The position numbers were made by a program, and so were the translations under genes. DNA of 64,000 nt, taken from assembly GCA_965207065.1 (NCBI GenBank), contig OZ242260.1:1664001-1728000 (forward strand), in the 5' to 3' direction. Positions within the stretch are counted from its first letter, which is position 1; each line of letters opens with the position of its first letter. Shown piece by piece: positions 1-37,860 of this stretch. The stretch comes from a bacterium. GTDB lineage: Bacteria; UBA8248. The notes under the pieces are model-generated. The model was not told the origin of the DNA. It ran no database searches and saw only the letters and a list, made by a program, of their open reading frames with translations.

Positions 1-552
1 TTCAATACGGATAGGCAGCTTTATTTCCTGGAGTCTATGGTTTCAGTTGCACTAAGGACGCAACGTCCTTTCCTTTCTCAAGCCTTGATCAAGGCGCTAA
101 ACTACCACGCCATTGCTTGTCTACATGTGAATGCAGGTGAATATCGTCCTTGCGAAGTGAAAGTCGGTAGCTACGAACCGCCGGCGCATTATCGCGTACA
201 AGCCCTAATGGATGATTTCGTAAATCTTGTAAATCGGTACTGGGAGAATGAAGACCCGGTTCTTCTCTCTGCTTTTGTTCTCTGGCAACTCAATGTCATT
301 CACCCGTTTATCAATGGAAACGGAAGAACGGCGCGCGCTTGCTGTTATTTTGTGCTTTGCGTCAAATCAGGGGGATGGATAAGCGGAAAAGCTATATTGC
401 CGCAGCTTTTACAGCAACATAGAGAAGAATATGTTTCTGCACTTCAATATGCGGACAATGCGGCAAAACTGAAAACGTCAAATCAAGAAGCTCTTGGACC
501 TTTGCGTGATCTAATTAGAAAACTCCTGAATATACAGCTGGCCGATCACTAG
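1..552 (+). CDS. Fic family protein (probably 5'-partial)
   Basis: Fic motif HPFINGNGRTAR. The frame is open from base 1, and the DNA is visibly more AT-rich than its neighbours. Confidence 0.9.
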   Translation, partial: FNTDRQLYFLESMVSVALRTQRPFLSQALIKALNYHAIACLHVNAGEYRPCEVKVGSYEPPAHYRVQALMDDFVNLVNRYWENEDPVLLSAFVLWQLNVIHPFINGNGRTARACCYFVLCVKSGGWISGKAILPQLLQQHREEYVSALQYADNAAKLKTSNQEALGPLRDLIRKLLNIQLADH

Positions 553-637
553 ATGGCTTTCAGGCTATGTCCAGACTAAGCCATTAAGATCTGCCCGAGA
601 AAGTCGCTTGTGTTTAGGCCCACCAACTGGTGAACCC

Positions 638-1372
638 CTACCCCCCCTCCGCCTCGACGGCTTGGGCCATCTCGCCCATCGAGAAGAAGATGAAGTCGGT
701 CGTCGGCATATTCTCGACCTTCTCCGTCGCCCCCCAGCTTCCCCCCTCGGAAAGCCTCTGCCGGTCGATCCAGGCGTTGGCGAGGCCGAACCGGTTCGCG
801 GGCGCATGGTCGTGGCGCAGGCTCTGCGCCGTGTGCAGTACGTCGGATTTATCCAGCCCGAAGTCTGACTTCAGGTGCGACAGGAGATACTCGAAATTGG
901 CGTCGGCGGGCTTGTAGGTGCCGATGTCCTCGGCGGTATAAACGGCGTCGAACGCGACGCCCAGCTTGCGGTTCGAGGCGGCGAAGCCCTCGCGGTGCAC
1001 GTTCGAGAGGATGACGAGCTTGTAATGCCGCTTCAGGATGCGCAGCGCGTCCGCGGTATCTGCGAAGGCCGGCCACAGCGGCACGGATGCGCCGAACGCC
1101 TCATCGAGCGCGCCGCTCGTCTCGAATCCCAGACTCTCGGCCATGCTCCGGTGGACTCGTGCGAGGAGGTCGGGATAGTGAAGCCCGGGCGAGGCGTGCT
1201 CGTGGTGGGCTTCCCACTTGGCGAAGGCTAAGAGCGCGGCCTCGCGCGTCACCGCAGAGTCGCCGCCACTCATGATGAGCGGCTGCAGTGCGTCCCAGAT
1301 GCCGGCCTCCCAGTCGATGAGCGTGCCGTAGCAGTCGAACGTGAGTACTTTGTAATCGGTCAGTCGGGCCAT
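638..1372 (-). CDS. HAD-superfamily hydrolase, haloacid dehalogenase type II-like
   Basis: Motifs FDCYGTLIDWE, LSN, YKP and LHTAQSLRHDH. Confidence 0.88.
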   Translation of the reverse strand: MARLTDYKVLTFDCYGTLIDWEAGIWDALQPLIMSGGDSAVTREAALLAFAKWEAHHEHASPGLHYPDLLARVHRSMAESLGFETSGALDEAFGASVPLWPAFADTADALRILKRHYKLVILSNVHREGFAASNRKLGVAFDAVYTAEDIGTYKPADANFEYLLSHLKSDFGLDKSDVLHTAQSLRHDHAPANRFGLANAWIDRQRLSEGGSWGATEKVENMPTTDFIFFSMGEMAQAVEAEGG

Positions 1373-1674
1373 GGTCCGGGTTTCCTGTGAGGTGGGAGTC
1401 GGGATTTTTTGAACAAGCCAAAGTCTGATTGAGAAAGGATCTAAGGCTCTGCGCGAGGACTGTCAAGGATCGCCCCGGCATGCCTGAATCCAAAAACCCG
1501 GTTTGCATGGCGGAAGTAAATGTTTGTATAGTATGAATCTCTTTGTAATTTGTGAGATTGTATACAGTATACTTTATTGACGGCGGTTTTGCTCCGGGAG
1601 TCCCGGGTGGCGGAACCCGCTGATAATGAAAGTATTTCTAGAGCCGATTCATCATTTTGCGCTTGGAGACGCCC

Positions 1675-2844
1675 ATGGCTGAAGAAAAACCCCGCCAATT
1701 CGTTGGCAGCGTGGAATTCAAAAAAGGTCTCGAGGGGGCCATCACGAACGAGAGCGCCATCAGCTACGTCGATGGAGCGAACGGCAAGCTCATCTATCGC
1801 GGGTACAGCATCGACGACCTCTGCGCCGGAGGCGGGGGCTACGAGGAAACGGCCTACCTGCTGCTGAACGGAAAGCTGCCCACCCGGGCGGAACTCGACG
1901 TCTTCAATGCGGATCTCGCCTTGCGCCGGCCCATCCCCCAGCCGGTGAAAGACCTGATCGTGCAGATCGCCGGCACGTGCCACCCCATGAGCTCGCTGCG
2001 CACCGCCGTCTCCATGCTCGGCTGCCTGAATCCGAAGGAATTCGAGGTGACGGTGGAGAACGATTACGACATCGCCCTCACGCTCACGGCGCAGTTCCCC
2101 ACCCTGGTGGCAGCTATCCAGCGGGCGCGGAGGGGCGAGTTCCTCATCGAGCCCGACCCCGGCAAAGGGTTGTCCGAGGATTTCCTGAGCATGATGACGG
2201 GCGAGACGCCGGACGCGCGCACCGTGGAGGTGATGGATATGGCTCTCATCATCCACGCCGAACACGGCATGAACGCCTCCACCTTCTCCTCGATGGTCAC
2301 GAACAGCTCGCTAACGGATTTCTACAGCTCCATCGTCGCGGGCATCGGCTCGCTCAAGGGGCCCCTCCACGGCGGCGCCAACGAGGCCACGCTGCGCACG
2401 TTCCAGGAGATCGGAGACCCAGCCACGACGGAAGACTGGTTCGCGGCGGCGAAGTCGAAGAAGGTGAAGGTGATGGGCTTTGGCCACCGCGTCTACAAGG
2501 CCTACGACCCGAGGGCGCGCCTGTTCGACCCCATCGCCAAGGAATTCTCCGCGCGCGCCGGCACGAGCCATCTTTATGAGATCGCGAAAAAGCTCGAAGC
2601 CCTCGTGGTGGCGGACTTAGGGGGAAAGGGCATCTTCCCCAACGTCGATTTCTTCTCGGGCATCATCTACGACGCCATGGGCATCGACACGGACATGTTC
2701 ACGCCCATCTTCGCCGTGCCGCGCATCGCCGGGTGGTCGGCGCGCATCCTCGAGTACCTGCCCGACAACCGGCTCTTCAGGCCCCGCGCGGTCTACATCG
2801 GCGACCTGGAGTCGCAATACACGCCGATTGGCGAGCGCAGCTAG
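1675..2844 (+). CDS. gltA: Citrate synthase (citrate/2-methylcitrate synthase family)
   Basis: Motifs GPLHGGANE, MGFGHRVYKAYDPR and PNVDFFSG. ATG at 1675 follows a GGAG RBS. Confidence 0.92.
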   Translation: MAEEKPRQFVGSVEFKKGLEGAITNESAISYVDGANGKLIYRGYSIDDLCAGGGGYEETAYLLLNGKLPTRAELDVFNADLALRRPIPQPVKDLIVQIAGTCHPMSSLRTAVSMLGCLNPKEFEVTVENDYDIALTLTAQFPTLVAAIQRARRGEFLIEPDPGKGLSEDFLSMMTGETPDARTVEVMDMALIIHAEHGMNASTFSSMVTNSSLTDFYSSIVAGIGSLKGPLHGGANEATLRTFQEIGDPATTEDWFAAAKSKKVKVMGFGHRVYKAYDPRARLFDPIAKEFSARAGTSHLYEIAKKLEALVVADLGGKGIFPNVDFFSGIIYDAMGIDTDMFTPIFAVPRIAGWSARILEYLPDNRLFRPRAVYIGDLESQYTPIGERS

Positions 2845-2861
2845 CTTCAATAAGCAAACAG

Positions 2862-2895
2862 AAAGGCGGCCTCTCGAACGGGGGCCGCTTTTTTT
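2862..2895 (+). terminator. Intrinsic terminator after citrate synthase
   Basis: GCGGCCTCTCG/CGGGGGCCGC hairpin followed by a T run. Confidence 0.8.
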
Positions 2896-2936
2896 CGTCT
2901 ATTTCTTGAATAATCTGAAACCGAGGAGGGGTCCCC

Positions 2937-3356
2937 GTGGTGTTTGAAGACGGCTTCGTGATCGAGACGAAAGGGATGACGGACATTCTGGACATCACGC
3001 TCCAGGTCGAGCTCATCGTTTCGGCAAGCAAGGTGCAAACTGGAATCGTCCTGGCCTTCACGCCCGGCTCGACGGCGGGTCTCACGACGATGGAGTATGA
3101 GCCGGGAACGGTTTCTGACCTGAAAGAGGCTATCGCCCGACTGGCGCCCGAGGAATTGGACTACGCGCATGTCCTCTCGGGAGACGGGAACGGCTTCTCC
3201 CACGTCCGCGCCGCCCTGCTGGGGCCCAGCCTCTCTCTTTCCGTCCGGGGAGGCGCGCTCGTCACCGGAAAATGGCAGCAGGTCGTCCTGGTCGATTTCG
3301 ACAACCGCCCGAGGAACAGGCGTGTGGAAGTCCAGGTTCTGGGGGATAATTCTTAA
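2937..3356 (+). CDS. yjbQ: YjbQ/UPF0047 family protein
   Basis: Motifs GSTAGLTTMEYEPG, NGFSHVRAALLG and GKWQQVVLVDFD; GAGG RBS. Confidence 0.9.
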   Translation: MVFEDGFVIETKGMTDILDITLQVELIVSASKVQTGIVLAFTPGSTAGLTTMEYEPGTVSDLKEAIARLAPEELDYAHVLSGDGNGFSHVRAALLGPSLSLSVRGGALVTGKWQQVVLVDFDNRPRNRRVEVQVLGDNS

Positions 3357-25833: not shown

Positions 25834-26009
25834 TCAACTAGCGATCATCCCGAATATAAAGCGTCGGCAATGGCGATAACGATAGGCATTCTGCAGAATT
25901 CGTCATTTGCGAGTAATGGGCGTATGTACTGCTTATACAGAGGAAACGCGCATCAGCAATGCTTGGCAAGTTCATTTTCCCCCCTCACCTCACTCAAGGA
26001 GAATACACG

Positions 26010-27002
26010 ATGAAAAGGACAATGAAATTCATACTCGCTTCCGTCGTGGCGGTTTCGCTGGCGGGAGCGGCGGTTCCGGCAAGCGCCGCGAAATTCCTCG
26101 TGGTCGGCGGCGGCTCAACCACGGGCGTGTACTACCAGGTCGCTCTCAACGTCTGCAAGCTGGTGAACAAGAACCTGAAGGGCAAGGGCTACAACTGCAT
26201 CGGCCGTCCCGCCCTGGGTTCGGTGTTTAACATCAACGCCATCAAGCGCGGCCTGCTGAACTTCGGCGTTGCCCAGTCCGACAGGAACTTTCAGGCGTAT
26301 AACGGCACAGCCGACTGGAAGGGCAAAGCCTATAAGGGCCTGCGCAGCGTCTTCAGCGTTCACCCGGAAACCATCATGCTCGTCGCGCGCGCGGATTCGG
26401 GCATCATGAAGGTGTCGGATCTCAAGGGACGCCGGGTCAACATCGGCAACCCCGGCTCCGGCCAACGCGGAAACGCGACGGACATCCTGAAAATTTACGG
26501 CATCGACATGAACAAGGACATCAAGGCCGAGGGTCTGCAGCAGGGCGGTGCGAACCGCGCGCTGGTGGACAAGAAGATCGACGCGTTCTTCTACACTGTC
26601 GGCAACCCCTGGGGCGGCGGTCTCGAGATCTCCAACAGCACGGCGATCCGCATGATTCCCGTGAACTCCATGGGCATCCAGAAGCTCGTGGCCGGCAAGC
26701 CCTACTACGTGATGACGAATATTCCGGGCGGCATCTACAAGGGCGTCAAGAAAGACGTGCCGACCTACGCGGTGAAGGCCACTTTCGTGACCGGTAAAAA
26801 CCAGCCCAACGACGTGGTCTACAACGTCGTGAAGACCATCTTCGATAATCTCGACCAGTTCCGCGCCACGCACGCGGCGTTCAAATACCTGACGAAGAAA
26901 GACATGCTCGGCGGCCTCTCGGCTCCCTTCCATCCGGGCGCCGTGCGTTATTACGAAGAAACAGGCCTGATGAAGAAGATGATGAAGAAGATGAAGAAGT
27001 AG
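26010..27002 (+). CDS. TAXI family TRAP substrate-binding protein
   Basis: GGSTTGVYY, GSVFNI, GNPGSG, PFHPGA; AAGGAG RBS. Confidence 0.93.
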   Translation: MKRTMKFILASVVAVSLAGAAVPASAAKFLVVGGGSTTGVYYQVALNVCKLVNKNLKGKGYNCIGRPALGSVFNINAIKRGLLNFGVAQSDRNFQAYNGTADWKGKAYKGLRSVFSVHPETIMLVARADSGIMKVSDLKGRRVNIGNPGSGQRGNATDILKIYGIDMNKDIKAEGLQQGGANRALVDKKIDAFFYTVGNPWGGGLEISNSTAIRMIPVNSMGIQKLVAGKPYYVMTNIPGGIYKGVKKDVPTYAVKATFVTGKNQPNDVVYNVVKTIFDNLDQFRATHAAFKYLTKKDMLGGLSAPFHPGAVRYYEETGLMKKMMKKMKK

Positions 27003-27113: not shown

Positions 27114-29363
27114 ATGAGCGAGCCGGGTGATTCCGCAGACGCCTTGAGCGCAGGGATAGACGAGGAATCGAAGAAGGCGGCGGAGGAAATCGCCGCCGAA
27201 GCGGAATCAGGCGGAAGGCAGCCCAAGAACCTCACAGCCTGGCTGGTCTCGGTTCTGGCTATCTCCTGGTCTTGTTTTCAGCTCTACATCGCCTACACAC
27301 CGCTTAACTCCATTATCGCCAGAAGCATCCATCTCACCTTCGCCATCACGATGGTCTATCTCGCTTTCCCGGGTACGAAAAAGCCCGGCGAGAGCTGGGT
27401 TCAGCGTGTATCGCTCCAGCTTTTCCCCGGCTTCTTGCGGCCCCAGCGCTCTACGCGGCAGGTCATCCCCTGGTACGACTACGCGCTCGCGATCCTCGCA
27501 GGTTTGGGCGCGCTCTACATGGCCTGGGATTACGTGAACATCATCCAGCGATCGGGTCTACCCATCCAGCGCGACGTCATTGTGGGGGCGATTCTCGTCC
27601 TTCTGCTTCTGGAGGCCGCGCGCCGCGCGCTCGGGCCCGCGCTGCCGATTCTCGCCATCTTGTTTTTGCTCTATTGCTTCGCGGGTCCCTACATGCCCTC
27701 GTTCATCGCGCATCCGGGCGTTCCGCTCGAATTCGTCGTGGACCACATGTATCTGAGCGACAGCGGCATCTGGGGCGTACCTATCGGGGTGTCGACGAGC
27801 TTCGTGTTCCTCTTCGTGCTGTTCGGCTCCCTGCTCGACAAGGCGGGGGCGGCGAACTACTTCGTGCAGGTGGCCTTCGCGGCGCTGGGCCGATTCCGGG
27901 GCGGACCCGCCAAGGCGGCCGTGGTCGCCTCGGGCATGACGGGGCTTGTCTCGGGCTCATCCATCGCGAACGTGGCGACGACGGGGACCTTCACGATTCC
28001 GCTGATGAAAAAAGTGGGCCTGCCCGCCTACAAGGCGGGCGCCGTGGAAGTGGGCGCGAGCACGAACGGACAGCTCATGCCGCCGGTCATGGGCGCCGCC
28101 GCGTTCATCATGGCGGAATTCCTGGGCCTCGCGTATCTCGACGTGGTGCGCGCCGCGATACTGCCGGCCCTGCTGTCTTATATCGCCCTGTTCTACGTCG
28201 TTCATTTAGAAGCGCTCAAGTTAAACTTAAGGCCGCTGAGAGAGGATGAACTGCCCTCGTTCTGGCACACGCTCATCAGCGGCATCCACTACGTCGTTCC
28301 CATCCTGGCGCTGATCTACACGCTCGTCATCCTGCGCATGTCGGCCGTGGCCTCGGCGTTCAACGCGATTCTGCTGACCATGGCGATCATCGTCGTCCAG
28401 CGTCCCATGCAGAACACCATCGCCGTCCTGGGCGATATGAAGCGCGAGAAGGGCGTCGCCCACCTGCGGGAGTTGTTCGGCGAGGCGCACTTCAAGGAGT
28501 TGGAGGATCGCCTCTGGCACGGTGTGCTCTCCGGTTTCGGCCAGAGCTTCGGCGACGTCTGGCAGGGGATGATGGCCGGGGCCAAGAACATGATGGGCAT
28601 CGGCGTGGCGACCGCGGCGGCGGGCATCATCGTCGGCACCGTGACGCTCACGGGGCTCAGCGGCCGCTTCATTGAATTGATTGAAATCATCTCTCTCGGC
28701 AACGTGGTGCTCATGCTCCTGCTCACCGCGTTGTGCTCGCTCATCCTGGGGATGGGCCTGCCCACGACGGCGAACTACATCGTCATGGCGACGCTCACCG
28801 CGCCCGTCATCGTGAGCCTGGGCGGGAAGGCGGGCCTCGTGGTGCCGCTGCTCGCAGCCCATCTGTTCGTCTTTTACTTCGGCATCCTGGCCGACGACAC
28901 GCCGCCGGTGGGTCTCGCCGCGTTCGCCGCCTCGGCGATAGCCAAGTCGGACCCCATCCAGACGGGCGTGCAGGGCTTCGTCTACGATTTGCGGACCGCC
29001 GTGCTGCCGTTCGTCTTCATCTTCAACCTGGAGTTGTTGATGATGCAGGGCGTCGGCCCCAAGGGCGAGATCATCTGGATCAACGACGTGATGAAAATCG
29101 CCTGGGTGTGTTTTGTCTCCCTTGTGGCGATGTTCGCCTTTGCGTCCGCGCTTCAGGGTTATTTCGCCGATAATTGCAACTGGGGCGAGCGGGCAGTGTT
29201 GATGGTGGTGTGCATCGCAGCGTTCAGACCCTCGCTCATCACGGATTTCACGAGCGGGCCGCGCCCCGTCGTGCAGCTCATCGCGGTGGCGATTTTCGCC
29301 GCATTGTACTGGTATCAGCACACCAGGCGAAAAGGGCAGACGCCGCAGCCGGCGCCCGCCTGA
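27114..29363 (+). CDS. TRAP transporter fused 4TM/12TM permease
   Basis: GGPAKAAV, GQLMPPVMGAAAF, LGMGLPTTANY, DDTPPV. Confidence 0.93.
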   Translation: MSEPGDSADALSAGIDEESKKAAEEIAAEAESGGRQPKNLTAWLVSVLAISWSCFQLYIAYTPLNSIIARSIHLTFAITMVYLAFPGTKKPGESWVQRVSLQLFPGFLRPQRSTRQVIPWYDYALAILAGLGALYMAWDYVNIIQRSGLPIQRDVIVGAILVLLLLEAARRALGPALPILAILFLLYCFAGPYMPSFIAHPGVPLEFVVDHMYLSDSGIWGVPIGVSTSFVFLFVLFGSLLDKAGAANYFVQVAFAALGRFRGGPAKAAVVASGMTGLVSGSSIANVATTGTFTIPLMKKVGLPAYKAGAVEVGASTNGQLMPPVMGAAAFIMAEFLGLAYLDVVRAAILPALLSYIALFYVVHLEALKLNLRPLREDELPSFWHTLISGIHYVVPILALIYTLVILRMSAVASAFNAILLTMAIIVVQRPMQNTIAVLGDMKREKGVAHLRELFGEAHFKELEDRLWHGVLSGFGQSFGDVWQGMMAGAKNMMGIGVATAAAGIIVGTVTLTGLSGRFIELIEIISLGNVVLMLLLTALCSLILGMGLPTTANYIVMATLTAPVIVSLGGKAGLVVPLLAAHLFVFYFGILADDTPPVGLAAFAASAIAKSDPIQTGVQGFVYDLRTAVLPFVFIFNLELLMMQGVGPKGEIIWINDVMKIAWVCFVSLVAMFAFASALQGYFADNCNWGERAVLMVVCIAAFRPSLITDFTSGPRPVVQLIAVAIFAALYWYQHTRRKGQTPQPAPA

Positions 29364-29452
29364 CCCGCGCGGGCTACTCGGCCCGGCTTCATCTCTGATT
29401 GTCTCCAAGGTTCCAGAGCAAGATTGGGTTGTGATAGGCTTGTCGGCCTCAT

Positions 29453-29529
<77 letters not shown>

Positions 29530-29687
29530 GAGAAAAAACACTCTCTGTTGCCCAAGGGAGAATCACGTCTCGAAATAGTGAAATTCACCCCCTCCTGCAC
29601 TGCGCAAACCTGCTTGATTCTGCTACCTTATGGGCGGATGAATCTCCCTTATTCTTGAATCGTTCTATTTTTCACAGGAGCGCGTTC

Positions 29688-30875
29688 GTGCAGAATCATT
29701 CTTTACCCCTTTCCCGCTTCAAGGTCCTGGATCTCACCCGCGCGCGGGCCGGCCCCACGGCGGTTCGCCAGTTCGCGGACTGGGGGGCGGACGTCATCAA
29801 GATAGAAGCGCCCCCCGCGAGCGGTTTTTCGGACAACATGGCCCAACCCCGGGGCGGCTATGAGGCGCAGAACCTGCACCGCAACAAGAGAGGCATGACA
29901 CTTAACCTGCGCGAAGAAAAAGGCCGCGAGATATTCTTCCGCCTGGTGGAAGGCGCCGACGTCGTCATCGAAAACTACCGGCCCGACGTGAAGCACCGCC
30001 TGGGGGTGGATTACGAGGCGTGCCGAGCCGTGAACCCGCGCATCGTCTACGGGAGCATCTCCGGTTTCGGGCAGGAGGGGCCCTACCGCAAGCGGCCGGG
30101 GCTGGACATGACGGCCCAGGGGCTGAGCGGTCTCATGTCCGTCACGGGAAAGCCGGGGGGCGGTCCAATGCGGGTGGGCATTCCGCTCGCCGACCTCTCG
30201 GCGGGCTTCATGCTCGCGCAGGGGATTATGATCGCCCTGCTCGAGCGCGAAGTGTCGGGCGAGGGTCAATGGGTGCACACCTCGCTTCTCGAAGCCCAGA
30301 TTCAGATGATGGACTTTCAGGCCGCGAGATACCTTCTTTTTGAGGACGTGCCGACCCAGCAGGGGAATAACCACCCCACCTTTTTGCCGGCGGGCGTTTT
30401 CGAGACCGCGGACGGACAGATCATCATCCAGTCCGGCCCCCAGCATCTCTGGAAGCGCCTCGTACATGCTCTCGAAATGCCCGAACTCTTAGAGAATCCG
30501 GACTATGAGAGCGTACCCAGTCGATTCGAGAACAAAGAGGTCCTGCACGAGACTATCAATCAGCGTACGCAAACGAAGCCGGGTGCGGAATGGATCGACA
30601 TACTGAACGAGGCGGGAATCCCCTGCGGGCCCATTTACACGGTGGACAAGACGTTCGCCGACCCCCAGGTCAAGGGGCTGAACATGTCGCCCGAGGTCGA
30701 ACATCCCGAAAAAGGGCCCATTAAAATTGTGGGCCAGGCGGTGAAGCTCACGCGAACGCCGCAGAAAATGCGCAACTCGACGCCCGAGGTGGGCGAGCAT
30801 ACGGAAGAGATTTTGAATCAAATGGGCTACGATGCGGAAGCGATAAACCAATTGCGCGATGCGGGCATCGTCTGA
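29688..30875 (+). CDS. Family III (CaiB/BaiF) CoA-transferase
   Basis: VLDLTRARAGP, GADVIKIE, RNKR, ISGFGQEGP. GTG start after AGGAG; the track's longer start overlaps the tRNA. Confidence 0.93.
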   Translation: MQNHSLPLSRFKVLDLTRARAGPTAVRQFADWGADVIKIEAPPASGFSDNMAQPRGGYEAQNLHRNKRGMTLNLREEKGREIFFRLVEGADVVIENYRPDVKHRLGVDYEACRAVNPRIVYGSISGFGQEGPYRKRPGLDMTAQGLSGLMSVTGKPGGGPMRVGIPLADLSAGFMLAQGIMIALLEREVSGEGQWVHTSLLEAQIQMMDFQAARYLLFEDVPTQQGNNHPTFLPAGVFETADGQIIIQSGPQHLWKRLVHALEMPELLENPDYESVPSRFENKEVLHETINQRTQTKPGAEWIDILNEAGIPCGPIYTVDKTFADPQVKGLNMSPEVEHPEKGPIKIVGQAVKLTRTPQKMRNSTPEVGEHTEEILNQMGYDAEAINQLRDAGIV

Positions 30876-30907: not shown

Positions 30908-31714
30908 ATGGAGCATGGAATGCAGTTATCGACGGAGAAGATGGCTTTCGAGGTGGACGGCGGCATCGGCTGGATGATCTTCAACAACCCCGAGCGGAGG
31001 AACGCGCTCTCGCTCGAGATGTGGGGGGCCATCGCCGAGATACTGGGTTCTTACGAGGCGGACGACGACATCCGCGTCGTGGTGATGAAGGGCGCGGGCG
31101 ATAAGGCGTTCGTCTCGGGCGCGGACATCTCCCAGTTCGCCAAGAACAGGAGCAACGCCGAGCAGGCCGCCGAGTACACGCGGATTTCCGAGGAAGCCAA
31201 AGAGATCATGGTGGGGATGAAAAAGCCGCTGATCGCCATGATCCAGGGCTATTGCCTGGGCGGCGGGCTGGGCATCGCGCTGAACGCCGACATCCGGGTC
31301 GCGTCGGACGATTCGCAGTTCGGCATCCCCGCCGGGCGTCTGGGCATCGCCTATGGCTTCGACAACCTGAAGCAGCTCGTCGATTTGGTGGGACCCGCCA
31401 AGGCGAAGGAGATTCTCTTCACCGCCCGGCGCATTCAGGCGGCGAAGGCCCTCGAAATCGGGCTGTTGAATGAAGTCGTGCCGGTCGACGAGTTGGAGAA
31501 CTACGTGGTGGACATGGCCTCCACCATCGCGAACAACGCGCCGCTCTCGGTCAAGGCGTCCAAGCTCACCATCGGCGAGGTGGTGAAAGACGGCGCCGAC
31601 CGCGATCTGGAGATGGTCGCCAGAATCTCGAAAGAGTGTTTCGACAGCGCCGACTATAAGGAAGGCCGCACGGCGTTCATGGAGAAGAGAAAGCCCGTCT
31701 TCACGGGCAGATAG
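30908..31714 (+). CDS. Enoyl-CoA hydratase/isomerase (crotonase) family protein
   Basis: FVSGADI, GYCLGGG, EGRTAFMEKRKP. Confidence 0.92.
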   Translation: MEHGMQLSTEKMAFEVDGGIGWMIFNNPERRNALSLEMWGAIAEILGSYEADDDIRVVVMKGAGDKAFVSGADISQFAKNRSNAEQAAEYTRISEEAKEIMVGMKKPLIAMIQGYCLGGGLGIALNADIRVASDDSQFGIPAGRLGIAYGFDNLKQLVDLVGPAKAKEILFTARRIQAAKALEIGLLNEVVPVDELENYVVDMASTIANNAPLSVKASKLTIGEVVKDGADRDLEMVARISKECFDSADYKEGRTAFMEKRKPVFTGR

Positions 31715-31736: not shown

Positions 31737-32342
31737 ATGAATGATGAGATATTCACCGAGGTCATCTCCCCCGCCGGTATTCCCAGGATACCGGATGAGG
31801 CCTTAAAGCCCAGACCGGAGGCGCTGGAAGGCGCGGTTCTCGGGATTTTGGAGAACAACAAGGAATTCTCCGACTGGGTGCTGGACAGGGTGCTTGAGAG
31901 GCTTCGAGCCTCGTTCGGCATCAAGGAGGTCGTCCAGCGCAGGAAGCATCACCTCGCCCAGGCGGCATCCCCTGAAATTATCGAGGAGTTGCACGCGCGC
32001 TGCGACGCCGTTCTGGTCGGCGTGGGGCACTGAGGCTCTTCCACGTCGTGGAGTGTCCGCGACGCGGTGGAACTCGAGAGGTTGGGAAGCCCCGCCTGCG
32101 TCATCGTGAGCCGGGGGTTCAGCCACAGCGGGCGCGCGATAGCGAGGAGGCAGGGCTACGGCGGCCTGCCCATCGTCGAGATGGACCACCCGCTCGCCGC
32201 TCCCGAGAGAGTAGCCCTTCACCCCAAGGCGGACGCCATCGTGAATGAGGTCGTCCACGCGCTCACGGGCGACCCGGAAAGACTCCGGGCCGAATACGCG
32301 GAGAAGAAGTTCCGGGGTCCTGAGAATCTTTGCCCGAAATAG
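31737..32342 (+). CDS. UGSC-family selenoprotein with U-G-S-S motif (TGA 32031-32033 read as Sec)
   Basis: Track ORFs 31737-32033 and 32067-32342 are in frame. Readthrough gives CDAVLVGVGH-U-GSSTSWSVRDAVELERLG..HPL, followed by a strong hairpin. Confidence 0.85.
32039..32072 (+). promoter_or_regulatory. Putative bacterial SECIS element
   Basis: Lower stem TTCCAC/GTGGAA, upper stem GTCGTGGA/TCCGCGAC, and loop GTG about 20 nt after the TGA. Confidence 0.72.
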
Positions 32343-32354
32343 GGGAGGCGGAAT

Positions 32355-33428
32355 TTGGCCGTGAACGTCGAAAACCCCTCTCTTGAGGCGGGCCGGCGGG
32401 TTTTGCCGGTCACAGGCTCCCTCGATGAGGTGAACGCATATTTCTACGAGCGCGGCTGGACGGACGGGCTGCCCATCGTCCCGCCCACGCGCGAGCGCGT
32501 GGAAAGCCTGCTCACCGGCTGGCCGGGAGAGGCGGATGAGGAAATCGCCGAGGTTCCTCCCCTCATGGGAATGGCGACGGTCCGCGCAATCGCGGTGAAC
32601 GCCGTGATGGCCGGCTGCGCGCCCGAATACCTGTCCGTCGTCGTCGCTGCCGTCACCGCAATCACCAGGCCGCGCTATGGACTCAGCCACCGCCAGACGA
32701 CCACGCACCCCGCCACCGCGCTCATTATCGTGAACGGCCCTATTGCGAGGCGTCTCAAAATCAACTCGGGCTCCGGCCTTTTCGGCCCCGGCTGGCGGGC
32801 GAACGCGACGATTGGTCGCGCGCTCAGGCTTTGCCTCATCAATTTGGGAGGGGCGATTCCCGGCGAGGTGGACCGCGCCCAGCACGCGCATCCGGGAAAA
32901 TACACCTACTGCATCGCCGAGAACGATGGCGCGAACCCCTGGGAGCCTTATCACGTCGAGCGCGGTTTTGAGCCGGATGAGAGCACGGTGACGCTCACCT
33001 GCGGCGAGGCGCCCCACTGCATCACGGACAACTACAACACCGAGCCCCACGCGCTGCTCTTCGGCTACGCGGACTCGATGGCGACCCTGGGCGGGAACAA
33101 CCTCTCCTCCCAGGGAGAGCCCGTCCTCGTCATGGCGCCCGAGCACGCCGCCTATATCGCGCGGGCGGGCTGGAGCAAAGCGGACGCGAAGCGCTATCTG
33201 TTCGAGAAGGCGCGAAAGCCCTGGAAGCACGTGGGCGTCCGGGGAAAATCGAAAGGCCCCACCTTTCCCGTCTGGGTCGACAGGACGGACCCCGAAGCCT
33301 CCGTGCCCATCCTCACCCACGCGGACGCCCTCATCCTCATCGTAGGCGGCGGCGAGGGCCAGAAATCCATGTGGATTCCCACCCCTGGCGCGCAGACGCT
33401 GAGCGTCATCGAGAGAATCAGAGGGTAG
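32355..33428 (+). CDS. Uncharacterised protein of the 'TDGLPIVPPT' family (usual neighbour of UGSC proteins)
   Basis: GWTDGLPIVPPT, AVNAVMAGC.PEY, RANATIGRALRL; GGAGG RBS. Confidence 0.85.
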   Translation: MAVNVENPSLEAGRRVLPVTGSLDEVNAYFYERGWTDGLPIVPPTRERVESLLTGWPGEADEEIAEVPPLMGMATVRAIAVNAVMAGCAPEYLSVVVAAVTAITRPRYGLSHRQTTTHPATALIIVNGPIARRLKINSGSGLFGPGWRANATIGRALRLCLINLGGAIPGEVDRAQHAHPGKYTYCIAENDGANPWEPYHVERGFEPDESTVTLTCGEAPHCITDNYNTEPHALLFGYADSMATLGGNNLSSQGEPVLVMAPEHAAYIARAGWSKADAKRYLFEKARKPWKHVGVRGKSKGPTFPVWVDRTDPEASVPILTHADALILIVGGGEGQKSMWIPTPGAQTLSVIERIRG

Positions 33429-33541: not shown

Positions 33542-33547
33542 TAAGTG

Positions 33548-33838
33548 ATGATCGAGGTTCGTCAAACCGATCAATATGCCCGATGGTTCGAGAGGCTTCG
33601 GGATAAGCGGGCAAAGGCGCGCATCAATACCCGCATCAGACGGTTGTCTTTGGGGAACCCTGGTGACGTGCGGGCTGTCGGGCATGGTGTATCGGAACTT
33701 CGGATAGACTACGGGCCCGGCTATCGCGTTTACTTTGTACAGCAAGGGCAATCCTTGGTGTTGTTGCTGGCCGGGGGAGATAAAAGTACTCAGGCTCGGG
33801 ATATCCTAAGAGCGCGGAATTTAGCGCAAGAGCTATAG
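33548..33838 (+). CDS. RelE/ParE-family toxin (addiction module killer)
   Basis: RIRRLSLGNPGD, VSELRIDYGPGYRVY, LLAGGDKSTQ. Confidence 0.92.
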   Translation: MIEVRQTDQYARWFERLRDKRAKARINTRIRRLSLGNPGDVRAVGHGVSELRIDYGPGYRVYFVQQGQSLVLLLAGGDKSTQARDILRARNLAQEL

Positions 33839-33847
33839 GAGTTTGTG

Positions 33848-34132
33848 ATGACGAATACAAGGATCAAGCCGTGGGATGCGGCGGATAATCTAAATACCAA
33901 AGAGGATATCGTTCTATACCTCGAGGCGGCTTTCGAGGATGGCGACCCGGCGCTCATCGCGGCGGCACTGGGGGACGCCGCGAGAGCCAGGGGAATGACG
34001 AAAGTCGCCGCCGAAGCCGGCCTGGGCAGGGAGAGCCTCTACAAGGCGCTATCGCCCGGCGGGAATCCCGGGTTCGCCACCGTACTCAAGGTCATGCGCG
34101 CCCTGGGTCTTCGGCTTCGCCCATCCGCTTGA
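33848..34132 (+). CDS. Addiction module antidote, HTH antitoxin
   Basis: ALGDAARARGM, GLGRESLYKALS..GNP.FATVLKV. Confidence 0.92.
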   Translation: MTNTRIKPWDAADNLNTKEDIVLYLEAAFEDGDPALIAAALGDAARARGMTKVAAEAGLGRESLYKALSPGGNPGFATVLKVMRALGLRLRPSA

Positions 34133-34383
34133 GTTCACGGCAAAGTTGCTTGATGTCCCGGTGACAGTTACGAAAGAGTACCAACCAGACATATTTCCCT
34201 GCTGATTCTGAAAATTCTGCATCTTTATCTGCAGGCTCAGAAAAATTCATCTGCAGTCCAGAAAAAAAGGTTGTGAGAGCATCCCCATCATGCTATTTTT
34301 TTCATTCCACACTAGACTTATTTTCAGAGGACGTTTCTTCAATTTCTTGATGCCCGCGAGGGCCCACGAGGGAGACAATTGTG

Positions 34384-35409
34384 ATGAAAAAACACCTGTT
34401 CACCGTAGTTTGCGCGTTTGCCGCCGTTGCGGTAATCGCAAGCGCCGCGTTCGCCGCCAGCTCGACGCTGGAGACCGTGAAAAAGCGCGGCAATCTCATC
34501 TGCGGCGTGAACACCGGCCTGACGGGATTCTCCGCGCCCGACGACAAGGGCGTCTGGAGAGGTTTCGACGTCGATTACTGCCGCGGCATCAGCGCAGCGA
34601 TTTTCGGCAATCCCGACAAGGTGACCTACAAGCCGCTGACCGGCAAGACGCGCTTCCCGGCGCTCCAATCCGGTGAGATCGACGTCCTCTCGCGCAACAC
34701 GACCTGGACCTTCAAGCGCGACGTGAACCTGGGCTTAGAGTTCGTGGGCGTGTTGTATTACGACGGGCAGGGCTTCATCGCCCGCAAGTCCCTCGGCGTC
34801 AAGAGCGCCAAGGAACTCGGCGGCGCTTCGATCTGCATCCAGACGGGCACCACGACCGAGCTCAACCTGGCGGACTTTTTCCGCAGCAACAAGATGAAGT
34901 TCAAATCGGTCGTCGTCGAGGACGCGGCCGAGGCGCGCCAGAACTACGCCGCCAACCGCTGCGACGCCTACACGACGGACCGCTCCGGCCTGGCCGCCCA
35001 GCGCTCCGTGCTCAAGAACCCGGCGGACCACGTGATTCTGCCCGAAATCATCTCGAAGGAGCCGCTCGGCCCCGTCGTGCGTCATGGTGACAACGTGTGG
35101 GGCGACATCGCCCGCTGGGTGCGCAACGCGCTCATCGTCGCCGAGGAACTCGGCATCACCTCCAAGAATGTCGACGCCATGAAGAAATCGAGCAACCCCG
35201 AGATCAAGCGCATGCTCGGCCAGGAAGGCGATTTCGGCAGCATGCTCGGCCTCCCGAAAGACTGGGCCTACAACGTCATCAAGGGCGTAGGCAACTATTC
35301 CGAGATCTACGAGCGCCACATCGGCCCCAAGACGGCCGTTGGCCTTGCGCGCGGCTACAACCAGCTCTGGACGAAGGGCGGCATTCTCTACTCGCCTCCA
35401 TTCCGCTAA
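34384..35409 (+). CDS. aapJ: General L-amino acid ABC substrate-binding protein
   Basis: GFDVDYCR, LSRNTTWT, IISKEPLGP, YSPPFR. Confidence 0.93.
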   Translation: MKKHLFTVVCAFAAVAVIASAAFAASSTLETVKKRGNLICGVNTGLTGFSAPDDKGVWRGFDVDYCRGISAAIFGNPDKVTYKPLTGKTRFPALQSGEIDVLSRNTTWTFKRDVNLGLEFVGVLYYDGQGFIARKSLGVKSAKELGGASICIQTGTTTELNLADFFRSNKMKFKSVVVEDAAEARQNYAANRCDAYTTDRSGLAAQRSVLKNPADHVILPEIISKEPLGPVVRHGDNVWGDIARWVRNALIVAEELGITSKNVDAMKKSSNPEIKRMLGQEGDFGSMLGLPKDWAYNVIKGVGNYSEIYERHIGPKTAVGLARGYNQLWTKGGILYSPPFR

Positions 35410-35525
35410 GCCGACTGAACGTGTAAGATAAGACCGTACCGGCTCCGGGGATTTCCCCGGGGCCGGGCGGCGCGTTCTCGAAGCAAAGATACCGCGCAGG
35501 CGAAGTCGCACACCGGGGACTCGAT

Positions 35526-36725
35526 ATGGCGGTAGACTCTCAACAAGCAGGCGCGCGGCCAAGCGCCGCCCGCTGGTGGTATGACCCCAAAGTCCGGGCG
35601 ATCGCGTTCCAGGTCGCCTTCGTACTGGCGCTCATCGGCCTCGGCGTCTACCTGATCCACAACACGATCATCAATCTCGAGAAACGAAACATCAAGGCGG
35701 GGTTCGATTTTCTCAATAACCCGGCAGGCTTCGAGATTCCGCTCACGCTCATCCCCTACTCCGTCGAGGCGGGCTCGACCCACGGTTCGGTATTCATCGT
35801 CGGTCTGCTCAACACGCTCCTCATCTCGGTCCTGGGCATCGTGCTGGCGACGATTCTGGGCTTTATTCTCGGCGTGCTCAGGCTCTCGAACAACTGGCTG
35901 GTCTCGAAACTGGTAGGGGTTTATATCGAGTCGGTGCGCAACGTGCCGCTGCTGCTGCAATTTTTGTTCTGGCACTTCGCCGTCTTTCAGTCGCTTCCCC
36001 TGGTGCGCCAGGCCATACCGCCGTTCGGAACGATCTTTATCCACAACCGCGGCCTCACGATCCCGAAGCCGCTCCCCCAGCCGGGCTTCATGGTGGTCGT
36101 GATATCGGTCTTCGTCGCCATCGCGGCGATTATCTATCTCAAGAAATGGGCGCGCAGGCGTCAGGACGCGACAGGAGAGCAGTTCCCCGTCTTCTGGGCG
36201 TCGCTCGGCGTCCTCATCGGCGCGCCGCTGCTCGCCTCGGCTGCGACCGGTTTTCCGCTGGCCTGGGAATACGCCGAACTGGGCCGGTTCCGCTTCACGG
36301 GCGGCCTCGAAATCCAGATAGAGTTGTTCGCTTCGCTGACCGCGCTCACTGTCTACACGTCTTCGTTCATCGCCGAAATCGTCCGCGCCGGCATTCTCGC
36401 CGTCTCGCGCGGCCAGCAGGAGGCCGCCTATTCGCTGGGGGTGCGGCCGGGGCCGACTTTGAGGCTCGTCATCATTCCCCAGGCGCTCCGGGTCATCGTG
36501 CCGCCGCTGGTGAGCCAATACCTGAACCTGACCAAGAACTCATCCCTCGGCATCGCCATCGGCTATCCCGATCTGTTCAACGTCTTCGGCGGCATCTCGC
36601 TCAACCAGACCGGCCAGGCCATCGAAATTATCTTTATGTGCGTGGTGGTGTATCTCACCTTCAGCCTGCTGATATCGCTCTACATGAACTGGTACAACAG
36701 GCGCATATCGCTGGTGGAGAGATGA
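35526..36725 (+). CDS. aapQ: General L-amino acid ABC permease
   Basis: RNVPLLLQ, QYLNLTKNSSL, NQTGQAIE. Confidence 0.93.
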   Translation: MAVDSQQAGARPSAARWWYDPKVRAIAFQVAFVLALIGLGVYLIHNTIINLEKRNIKAGFDFLNNPAGFEIPLTLIPYSVEAGSTHGSVFIVGLLNTLLISVLGIVLATILGFILGVLRLSNNWLVSKLVGVYIESVRNVPLLLQFLFWHFAVFQSLPLVRQAIPPFGTIFIHNRGLTIPKPLPQPGFMVVVISVFVAIAAIIYLKKWARRRQDATGEQFPVFWASLGVLIGAPLLASAATGFPLAWEYAELGRFRFTGGLEIQIELFASLTALTVYTSSFIAEIVRAGILAVSRGQQEAAYSLGVRPGPTLRLVIIPQALRVIVPPLVSQYLNLTKNSSLGIAIGYPDLFNVFGGISLNQTGQAIEIIFMCVVVYLTFSLLISLYMNWYNRRISLVER

Positions 36726-36729
36726 GGCC

Positions 36730-37860
36730 ATGAGCGATATTGCGAACAATCCGGACAGGAGCTTCGTCCGCACGGAAAATATCCCCGAGGCGCCGCCGCC
36801 GGTCTCGACCGCGGGCGTAGCCGGCTGGATGCGGGCGAACCTGTTCTCTTCGCCGGCCAATACGGCGCTCACGTTGCTGACGCTCTATCTCCTCTATCTG
36901 ATCGTGCCGCCGCTGTTCGAGTGGGCCTTCATCAACTCGCTCCTGGAGGGTGAGTCCAACAAGGACTGCCGGGGGATCGAGGGCGCCTGCTGGGTTCTGG
37001 TGCCGAAACGATTCGGGCAGTACATCTACGGCTTCTACCCTGAGCCCGAGCGCTGGCGGGTGAACCTCACCTTCATCCTGTTCTGCCTGAACCTCCTGCC
37101 GGTGCTGTCCGACAGGGTGCCGGGCCGCACCTTCTCCGCGCTTTTCCTGGTATTCGGTTTCCCCATCGTCGCCTTCGTTCTGCTCCACGGCGCCTTCGGC
37201 CTGGAGAGCGTGCCGACGCACAAGTGGGGCGGCCTGACGCTCACCCTCGTGTTCGCCTCGGTCGCCATCCTGTTCTCATTGCCCATCGGCGTTCTGCTGG
37301 CGCTCGGGCGGCGCTCGGAGATGCCCGTCATCCGCACGATCTGCATCGCCTTCATCGAGCTCTGGCGCTCGGTGCCGCTCATCACCGTGCTCTTCATGGC
37401 CTCATTCATGCTGCCGCTGTTCACGCCCGAGGGGGTGAACGCCAACGAACTGCTGCGCGCCCTGATAGGGTTCATCATGTTCGCCTCCGCCTATATGGCG
37501 GAAGTCGTGCGCGGCGGGCTGCAGGCGCTGCCGAAGGGCCAGACCGAGGCGGCCATGGCGCTGGGCCTGAACTACTGGAAGTCGATGCAGCTCATCATCC
37601 TGCCCCAGGCGCTCAAAATCGTGATTCCGGGCATCGTCAACACCTTCATCGCCCTGTTCAAGGATACCGCGCTGGTATCGATCATCGGGCTGTTCGACCT
37701 GCTGCTCGTGGCCCGCTCGGCCGTGACGGACCCCAAATGGCTGGGCCTCGAACATGAATCCTACATCTTCGCGGCTCTCATCTATTTCATATTCTGCTTC
37801 AGCATGTCGCGCTACAGCCTGTGGCTTGAGCGCAAGCTCGACACGGGCCACCGTAATTAA
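36730..37860 (+). CDS. aapM: General L-amino acid ABC permease
   Basis: [28 protein letters not shown]. Confidence 0.93.

Follow-up and report, generated by a model that had tools for sequence, protein, structure and literature searches.

Within a 64,000-nucleotide stretch of a 4.48-Mb, single-contig bacterial genome (genome G000, 59.5% G+C; C1:1664001-1728000, here called the window), positions 31737-32342 on the forward strand form one real, unannotated gene which, judged from comparison with its relatives, encodes a selenoprotein of the UGSC family. Selenocysteine (Sec, U) is predicted at codon 99 of this gene, and Ser stands where the family has its name-giving Cys, at position +3 from Sec. 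The product is, by the same comparative evidence, a member of a distinct and widespread H-[U/C]-G-[S/A]-S subfamily with Ser replacing the +3 Cys, and its gene is directly followed by the gene of a 357-aa partner protein. GrdB and PrdB are known as 'selenoprotein B' and belong to the reductases for glycine, betaine, sarcosine and D-proline. The explanation that we favour for the whole, with a probability of about 0.6, is that the U-G-S-S (UGSS) protein is a Sec protein with a GrdB/PrdB-like domain and serves as the selenol subunit of a two-part enzyme together with this partner.

The UGSC family was reportedly described by Zhang and Gladyshev, in Olavius symbionts in 2007 and in the Global Ocean Sampling (GOS) data in 2008. 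It ranks with the most abundant of the predicted selenoprotein families in aquatic metagenomes and has been without an assigned function since about 2007. The present locus adds the Ser(+3) subfamily and the operon setting of the pair with CoA-transferase, hydratase and TRAP transporter genes. In the GOS paper, 255 Sec sequences of UGSC are counted versus 21 Cys forms, and the family is listed under the UxxC redox motifs with a guessed thioredoxin (Trx)-like fold (PMC2398784).

Reading frame and family assignment

The frame starts with ATG at 31737, contains an in-frame TGA at 32031-32033 and ends with TAG at 32340-32342 (+ strand). With genetic code table 11, it is divided into two open reading frames (ORFs) of 98 aa (31737-32033) and 91 aa (32067-32342). 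An earlier interpretation made from the letters of the DNA (the sequence-only reading) had described two ORFs parted only by this TGA, with a joint product of 201 aa and the TGA at codon 99, and they are present exactly as described. When TGA is read as U, the 201 residues contain it in the context GVGH-U-GSSTSWSVRD.

The read-through product was entered into profile scans with C in place of U. It matched the UGSC family of Pfam (PF24696) with an E value of 4.5e-44 and 151 bits (cut-off 25), and residues 9-177 were aligned to model positions 2-171 of 172. As the TGA is located inside the matched span, the family assignment of the sequence-only reading holds across the codon. Pfam and PDB sequence searches with the focal protein yielded nothing other than UGSC. 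Compared with the family (PF24696; NCBIfam equivalog NF041046), the focal protein has the same domain and Sec or Cys in the same column, followed by Gly-Ser. It differs by Ser for the Cys at +3, by His for the usual Asp at -1, by a C-terminal tail reading ...AEYAxKKFxxPE and by an NF041046 score below the equivalog cut-off.

Eight PF24696 genes were found in the focal genome, each with exactly one in-frame TGA. The other seven read D/G/V-U-G-[SG]-C, which makes the focal copy the odd one out. It is also the most divergent stand-alone paralogue and ranked seventh of eight with 144 bits in a genome-wide Pfam scan. The databases contain halves of relatives (P0009, P0022 and P0037), which terminate at ...GVGH. 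The UGSS subfamily is systematically missed because gene callers split its genes at the TGA and because its members score under the NCBI naming cut-off.

Decoding of the UGA codon

We infer that the UGA at 32031-32033 (+ strand) is read as Sec, since TGA is found in 21 of 21 orthologous genes, relatives have Cys at this position and the genome contains the Sec machinery. The sequence-only reading had made its proposal dependent on this machinery. The genes selA (579 bits) and selB (386 bits) are neighbours some 25 kb away from the window, and selD (334 bits) and tRNA-Sec (75.9 bits) were detected in the genome as well, all four above the curated cut-offs. The selD gene (C1:543537-544499, locus L011, - strand) itself has one in-frame TGA and encodes a Sec-type selenophosphate synthetase.

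The codon is followed by a hairpin similar to a bacterial selenocysteine insertion sequence (bSECIS). The 60 nt starting at the TGA folded with -24.9 kcal/mol (z = -2.0), and 7 out of 200 shuffled sequences were equally stable. The core at 32044-32064 (+ strand) is an upper stem of 9 bp at TGA+13 to +21 and +25 to +33 (32044-32052 and 32056-32064) with the loop G-U-G. Weaker outer pairs lengthen the hairpin to about 32031-32076. A hairpin with a G-first loop 3' of the TGA had been claimed from the sequence, and these outer pairs span roughly the range that was given for it. The bSECIS model, as given with Fig. 2 of PMC13188914, has a loop of 3-9 nt with G within the first two positions, an upper stem of 4-16 bp, a distance of 16-37 nt between UGA and loop and a minimum free energy of at most -7.5 kcal/mol. 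The focal hairpin lies inside these published limits throughout: its loop has 3 nt with G in first position, its stem has 9 bp, the UGA is 19 nt away from the loop, and the folding energy is -24.9 kcal/mol.

In all eight UGSC paralogues, a hairpin occupies the same position downstream of the TGA. Covariation was calculated for a helix of 9 pairs over 31 distinct 48-nt TGA segments from paralogues, orthologues and other relatives. In these 31 sites, 93.5% of the helix cells were paired, compared to 15-54% when the 3' partners were slid, and the covariation score was reached by none of 500 shuffles. Compensatory double changes were observed at two stem pairs, once from G-C to A-U and four times from G-C to C-G. 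The loop positions G23 and U24 did not vary at all. Among the orthologues, the inner stem had three substitutions, every one of them leading to a G-U wobble pair, and in five orthologues a change disrupted the second pair of the 9-bp stem, counted from its base. The hairpin, beginning 11 nt downstream of the UGA, would aid its decoding as Sec.

Conservation across the genus

Orthologues were searched in 41 genomes, namely the focal genome and 40 relatives. An orthologue with 74-92% identity and one TGA was present in 20 of the 22 other genomes of the genus. The two others (G007 and G009) had paralogue-level matches only, and the best match outside the genus showed 40% identity. The motif GVGH-TGA-GSST(S/L)WSVRD was kept in all 21 genes, and the Sec codon and the following Gly codon read TGA-GGC in the focal gene and throughout the orthologous set (21/21). 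Ser in place of the motif Cys, as seen by the sequence-only reading at this locus, is fixed in 21/21 orthologues as Ser102 (TCC) at +3.

The ratio of nonsynonymous to synonymous substitutions (dN/dS) was determined by the Nei-Gojobori method with 20 genes of 202 codons (190 pairs), and the gene of locus L057 (194 codons) was excluded. It was 0.20 upstream of the TGA (codons 1-98) and 0.19 downstream of it (codons 100-201). The frame past the TGA is therefore translated and equally constrained, which rules out a pseudogene or a simple stop. Two independently translated proteins, a case that had been named as a possible refutation, are contradicted by the equal dN/dS on both sides and by the TGA kept in 21/21 genes.

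Apart from the Sec site, Cys121 at the start of strand 4 was kept in 21/21 genes. Cys199 (32331-32333), located in the tail N-L-C-P-K, was found in 19 of 21; the remaining two have Ser or Trp there. This Cys is missing from representative P0003 and from the one GOS read reaching the C-terminus.

Distribution of the Ser(+3) form

A HMMER search of 1.84 billion representative sequences resulted in 928 family members at E values up to 0.001. Residues were counted in the 144 site-spanning sequences among the best 150 of these 928, a sample that is skewed to focal relatives and to the forms which gene callers are able to read, namely the Cys forms. The Sec column contained Cys in 136 cases, Ser in 6 and His and Ile in 1 each, and the homology was unbroken across the site; Cys in this column was what the sequence-only reading had expected of homologues. 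The next column was Gly in 138/144 and position +10 was Asp in 136/144. Position +9 was variable (His 34, Arg 30, others). At position -1, Asp was observed in 120 sequences and His in 8. At position +3, Cys (122) was followed by Ser (16), Pro (3) and Asn, Ala and Thr (1 each). The combination H-C-x-S occurred in 4 sequences, and D-C-G-T-S and D-C-G-S-S forms were found too.

Among the matches listed, the closest full-length relatives outside the genus were P0003 (41% identity, GVGH-C-GSSSPW) and P0080. P0004 and P0007 have H-C-G-A-S and P0019 has Q-C-G-A-S, and the C-terminal tail of the focal protein is common to P0003 and P0019. A pattern scan of one genome per species, which covered Cys codons only by design and is blind to Sec forms, gave 30 loci of the Cys type H-C-G-[SA]-S. 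They were mostly from metagenome-assembled genomes of Alphaproteobacteria (many of them Xanthobacteraceae), with some Acidobacteriota and Actinomycetota.

Metagenome contigs were scanned with the pattern GGN-CAY-TGA-GGN-TCN-TCN-AC, and at least 119 loci were obtained; of those listed, 29 had a UGSC-like tblastn match and 90 had none. At least 28 metagenome loci showed the read-through GVGH-TGA-GSSTPWT(A/V)RDA with 34-49% identity to the focal protein and constitute a second Sec-type H-U-G-S-S lineage. No two of these 28 sites have the same sequence, and every one has a GC-rich hairpin of its own, with G and U in the loop.

Dataset S1 of the GOS paper (PMC2398784) contains 18 'UGSS' strings. 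Fifteen of them belong to the arsenate reductase UxxS section, and the other three are in the '#UGSC-containing' section and read GVGH-U-GSSSPWSVHDAVALE. The single GOS read extending to the C-terminus has the same tail as the focal protein. Because of these three reads, H-U-G-S-S has been public under the UGSC label since 2008. A literature search returned no paper combining 'UGSS' with 'selenocysteine', and the main text of the GOS paper, in its available part, gives UGSC as UxxC only. The U-G-S-S variant put forward by the sequence-only reading is thus real, but it is not peculiar to this locus. It is a textually undescribed variant of a known family, represented by a widespread subfamily.

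The partner protein

The partner gene (32355-33428, + strand) encodes 357 aa of an unnamed family and begins with TTG 12 nt past the UGSS stop codon. No sequence match was obtained for the partner in Pfam, NCBIfam or PDB. Its family comprises at least 7,994 clusters at E values up to 1e-10, and the source names shown among 120 listed were 'hypothetical protein'. The focal genome contains 15 copies with 33-50% identity. Seven of them are within 200 nt of a UGSC gene or fused to it, five are 1-6 kb away and three have none nearby. Four tandem copies (C1:1430014-1434198; about 205-3349 and upstream in locus L036) are located 2.7-5.9 kb upstream of the UGSC paralogue at C1:1436901. The copies at C1:4402239, 3074574 and 4430064 have no UGSC gene within 400 kb.

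A partner gene followed the UGSC-type gene at 29 of the 30 Cys-type loci (the contig of the thirtieth ends), at 19 of 20 orthologue loci of the UGSS gene (one contig ends) and at 13/13 metagenome loci reaching far enough. Identity to the focal partner was 55-72% at these loci (57-65% for the Cys type) versus at most 50% for paralogues of the own genome. A tree of 47 partners (FastTree, 353 columns) placed the focal partner, 10 orthologues and 26 Cys-type partners in one clade (37/37 tips, support 0.96) that left out 10 paralogues from the focal genome. Owing to adjacency, identities and tree, the pair can be regarded as inherited as a unit, and the focal pair as the Sec branch of the H-[U/C]-G-[S/A]-S lineage.

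Natural fusions of both proteins exist. One in the focal genome has 536 codons with one TGA and joins a U-G-G-C domain and a partner domain (C1:1410918-1412525; L039 4921-6528, - strand); a free partner copy is located directly downstream of it (L039 3883-4914, - strand). Two Actinomycetota loci encode 533-aa fusions of a Cys-type H-C-G-[SA]-S domain and the partner (L094 4004-5602 and L095 3992-5590, + strand). Both are flanked by a GntR/UTRA regulator gene and a 'Cyclase' (PF04199) gene. Among the best 150 of the 928 family members, 19 have more than 400 aa. The GOS paper (PMC2398784) already describes the fusion 'UGSC/Unknown_1', in which one Cys is conserved, and the focal protein shares this 'Unknown_1' with the UGSC family as its obligatory neighbour and fusion partner.

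Conserved residues of the partner are D37-G-L-P, P44-T, A86-G-C88-x-P, G128-P and N150...G154-R. Cys88 is invariant in the 47-sequence alignment and kept in at least 90% of a 62-sequence alignment. In the partner comparisons, no compensating Cys was seen that only the partners of the Ser subfamily possess. An AlphaFold model of the partner had a pLDDT of 87.3 and a pTM of 0.89, and its comparison with the PDB gave no convincing structural relative. A relationship between UGSC and its own partner was considered and rejected (hhalign 0.4%).

Relation to GrdB and PrdB

A resemblance of the Sec region to glycine and proline reductase B subunits had been noted in the sequence-only reading. The focal genome contains four genes of the GRDB family (PF07355), i.e. 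a 438-aa GrdB-type copy at C1:3095011-3096324 (L100 1492-2805, + strand) and further genes at C1:1874035-1874970, 831999-832901 and 1074556-1075398 (- strand). Every one of these ORFs ends at a TGA exactly at the end of the Pfam model. Read-through adds 86-133 residues to the four, in one case ...VLPAT-U-GTGTRSGAALARALEREGIPTVIVT...HHPFG. The 438-aa copy reads U-G-T-G-T-R-S-G and is without the Cys residues of UxxCxxC, which is the motif given for GrdB in PMC13188914. A GrdE/PrdA-type gene and a thiolase-like/DUF5940 gene are located near this copy.

On this copy, the GRDB model reaches residue 349, directly ahead of Sec350, and leaves the Sec site and the 88 following residues uncovered. Routine domain scans never link UGSC and GRDB because the model stops before the only homologous part. 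The 28 database relatives of GRDB that were listed are all cut at the Sec codon and have 348-350 aa. For a deeper GRDB profile, 28 read-through genes were taken from the DNA of 12 genomes of the same bacterial family. When a 121-sequence UGSC alignment was compared with the four GRDB genes, hhalign gave 93.2% probability (E 3e-7, 85 columns) with Sec on Sec. Against the 28 genes it was 94.4% (E 8.4e-8, 84 columns), with UGSC 87-179 on GRDB 339-429 and again Sec on Sec. The controls reached 0.3% with a reversed template and at most 0.3% with ten column-shuffled templates. Masking of the Sec column in both profiles still left a probability of 90.0% (E 1.7e-6), and the eight paralogues alone gave 89.8% over 115 columns. 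Independently, TIGR01917, the NCBIfam model of complete GrdB, matched two canonical paralogues in the Sec region with E values of 2.3e-4 and 4.8e-4 (20.2 and 19.1 bits; cut-off 602).

UGSC proteins have in common with GrdB/F/H and PrdB a strand, U-G-x-x-T-x-x-S/G, a helix ending in ...LE[RK]xG[IV]PT, a further strand and ...HP[LFV]G. Three UGSC paralogues have UxxCxxC, and GRDB genes of the same bacterial family include U-G-T-G and U-G-T-S, i.e. forms without Cys at +3. In contrast to GrdB, UGSC proteins are without its 200-340 N-terminal residues (the N-terminal two thirds), the focal operon has no grdA, grdC or grdD, and the partner is not the pyruvoyl protein GrdE/PrdA. These alignments support a remote homology between the UGSC domain and the C-terminal domain of GrdB/PrdB that bears Sec. 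Of the noted resemblance, remote homology of the Sec domain stands (hhalign 94.4%, clean controls). Membership of the focal protein in the GrdB/PrdB family was rejected, as the N-terminal part is absent, the family models are unmatched and the partner is unrelated.

Predicted fold

The model of the UGSS protein had a pLDDT of 95.1 and consisted of five strand-helix units in an alpha/beta sandwich. Strand 3 leads up to Sec, which was positioned at the N-terminus of helix 3. Foldseek and VIA-align matched, among the matches listed, flavodoxins, azoreductases, Rossmann-type domains and B12-binding domains, and no thioredoxin. The UGSC fold is hence predicted to be flavodoxin/Rossmann-like and probably not Trx-like as guessed in 2008. 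A GrdB or PrdB structure was found neither among the listed matches of the structure search nor in the literature search.

Proposed mechanism and alternative explanations

In the proposed enzyme, the UGSS protein would be the small selenol subunit and the 357-aa partner the large subunit. The Sec selenolate at the helix N-terminus would attack a substrate held by the partner. Since there is no Cys at +3, the Se adduct would have to be resolved in trans, and Sec would act without a local resolving Cys. Candidates for the resolving thiol are the near-invariant Cys88 of the partner, another thiol protein and, in this genus, possibly Cys199 of the tail. The UxxC redox couple cannot be the essential chemistry of the family, because a whole branch keeps Sec and has lost the neighbouring Cys. 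A Sec domain that is GrdB/PrdB-like and probably not thioredoxin-like points to covalent selenol catalysis on a partner-held substrate. Ser at +3 is also found in ArsC form 1 ('Arsenate reductase 1, UxxS' of GOS), and some GOS ArsC reads have H-U-G-S-S. Family and fold of ArsC are unrelated, the likeness is limited to the short motif, and ArsC is without a partner gene. Its case shows that a selenol without a neighbouring Cys can form a functional active site, the adduct being resolved by an outside thiol.

More tentatively, and with considerable doubt, UGSC proteins and their partners may together form a large class of two-subunit reductases, in which the selenol domain of GrdB/PrdB has become free-standing and a large subunit with a new fold replaces the pyruvoyl subunit. 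The UGSS proteins would then be a natural Cys-to-Ser mutant of this class. If true, H-[U/C]-G-S-S proteins would demonstrate a covalent Se-substrate adduct that is resolved in trans instead of a UxxC selenylsulfide. In this genus, the enzyme would carry out a reduction while an imported C4-C6 dicarboxylate is degraded as its CoA ester.

Several observations weigh against the selenol-subunit explanation. Sec insertion and activity are so far predictions, for the focal gene as for all other members of UGSC. The focal protein scored 118.2 bits with NF041046 and remained below the cut-off of 125; six stand-alone canonical paralogues reached 140.4-159.2, P0007 112, P0003 104.4 and the fusion of the own genome 97.3. 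A FastTree of the UGSC domain (185 columns) was resolved too weakly for a count of how often the +3 Cys was lost independently. With the focal protein, no Pfam GRDB row was obtained at E values up to 10 and no TIGR01917 row at E values up to 0.01, and the homology to GrdB comprises about 85-115 columns that come from profile comparison and sub-threshold paralogue matches only. The candidate thiol Cys199 is missing in 2/21 orthologues. The partner was rejected as a GrdE/PrdA protein, with an hhalign probability of 0.08% versus the genome's sole PF09338 protein, whose gene (C1:3091211-3092377) is next to the full-length GRDB gene, some 1.4 Mb away from the window. As the partner is unrelated to this pyruvoyl subunit, the analogy to the Stickland reductases may end at the Sec domain. 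None of the other genes of the focal operon was found within 4 kb of the Cys-type pairs, and the substrate may therefore differ between lineages.

A thioredoxin-type thiol/selenol oxidoreductase that shuttles electrons to the partner without attacking a substrate carbon is the strongest alternative, although it is unlikely. It would agree with the UxxC listing and the guessed fold of the GOS paper (PMC2398784) and with the modelled position of Sec at the N-terminal end of a helix, like the CxxC of redox proteins. However, Ser(+3), fixed in 21/21 orthologues and present in a whole subfamily, bars an intramolecular UxxC Se-S bond, the model is an alpha/beta sandwich whose top listed structure matches are flavodoxin/Rossmann-like with no thioredoxin, and the sole relative at sequence level outside the family is the Sec domain of GrdB/PrdB. 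It is quite improbable that Sec99 is instead a metal or cofactor ligand together with His98 and Asp109, so that the changes from D to H and from C to S re-tune a set of ligands. His(-1) does accompany Ser(+3), in the four H-C-x-S representatives as well as in the focal and metagenome clades, and Asp(+10) is nearly invariant (136/144). Yet D-C-G-T-S and D-C-G-S-S exist and His is thus not required once Cys is lost, no metal-site family or structure was among the matches, and the homologous Sec of GrdB/PrdB is described in PMC13188914 as a reactive residue and not as a ligand.

The divergence of the focal copy, as the stand-alone paralogue with 144 bits in seventh place of eight and below the NCBIfam cut-off, and the cut halves of relatives in public sets (P0009, P0022, P0037) could also be explained by a decaying or split copy. 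The TGA would then be a true stop behind a 98-residue fragment, perhaps with a separate C-terminal piece, and Ser would reflect relaxed constraint. This is by far the least probable explanation. TGA, motif and frame are kept in 21/21 genomes down to 74% identity, dN/dS after the TGA (0.19) equals that before it (0.20), and the hairpin is kept with changes of inner pairs that are wobble or compensatory. The Cys-type relatives are continuous single proteins, and in the model the TGA corresponds to the junction of strand 3 and helix 3 in one compact domain, of which neither half would be expected to fold alone. Halves in databases are the ordinary outcome of gene callers at any Sec codon.

Operon and possible substrate

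Four genes precede the UGSS gene on the same strand, with gaps of 22-111 nt between the upstream genes. They encode a TAXI-type (NMT1_3) solute-binding protein of a TRAP transporter (25959-27002; PF16868, E 9.4e-77), a fused TRAP transporter permease (27114-29363; TIGR02123, 649.6 bits), a family-III CoA-transferase (29424-30875; NCBIfam/Pfam) and an enoyl-CoA hydratase (30908-31714; PF00378, NF004781), the last one 22 nt upstream of the UGSS gene. The CoA-transferase was present at 19/20 orthologue loci (the other contig ends) and the hydratase at 20/20. The order CoA-transferase, hydratase, UGSS, partner was kept at each of the 20 orthologue loci, within the limits of the contigs. The best NCBIfam rows of the CoA-transferase were succinate-glutarate and succinyl-CoA:mesaconate CoA-transferases, both far under their cut-offs.

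The flanks of the Cys-type pairs were surveyed by Pfam scans of 43 ORFs from nine loci. They contained MmgE/PrpD-family enzymes (six ORFs, five loci), Iso_dh-type dehydrogenases (two loci), GntR regulators and parts of TctC, MFS or ABC carboxylate transport. Judged from the gene neighbourhood, both settings loosely point to a catabolism of di- or tricarboxylic acids, and the substrate of the UGSS protein and its partner would probably be a small di- or tricarboxylic acid or a CoA ester. The conserved TRAP-TAXI/CoA-transferase/hydratase operon narrows the substrate search to small carboxylates and CoA esters, and this makes the function of the UGSS-partner pair testable.

Directly past the operon, a toxin-antitoxin-like pair is located at 33545-34132 (+ strand), consisting of a Gp49/HigB-like protein (PF05973, 97 aa) and an HI1420-type antidote protein (PF21716, 95 aa). 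It is followed by an ABC transporter cluster at 34381-37860.

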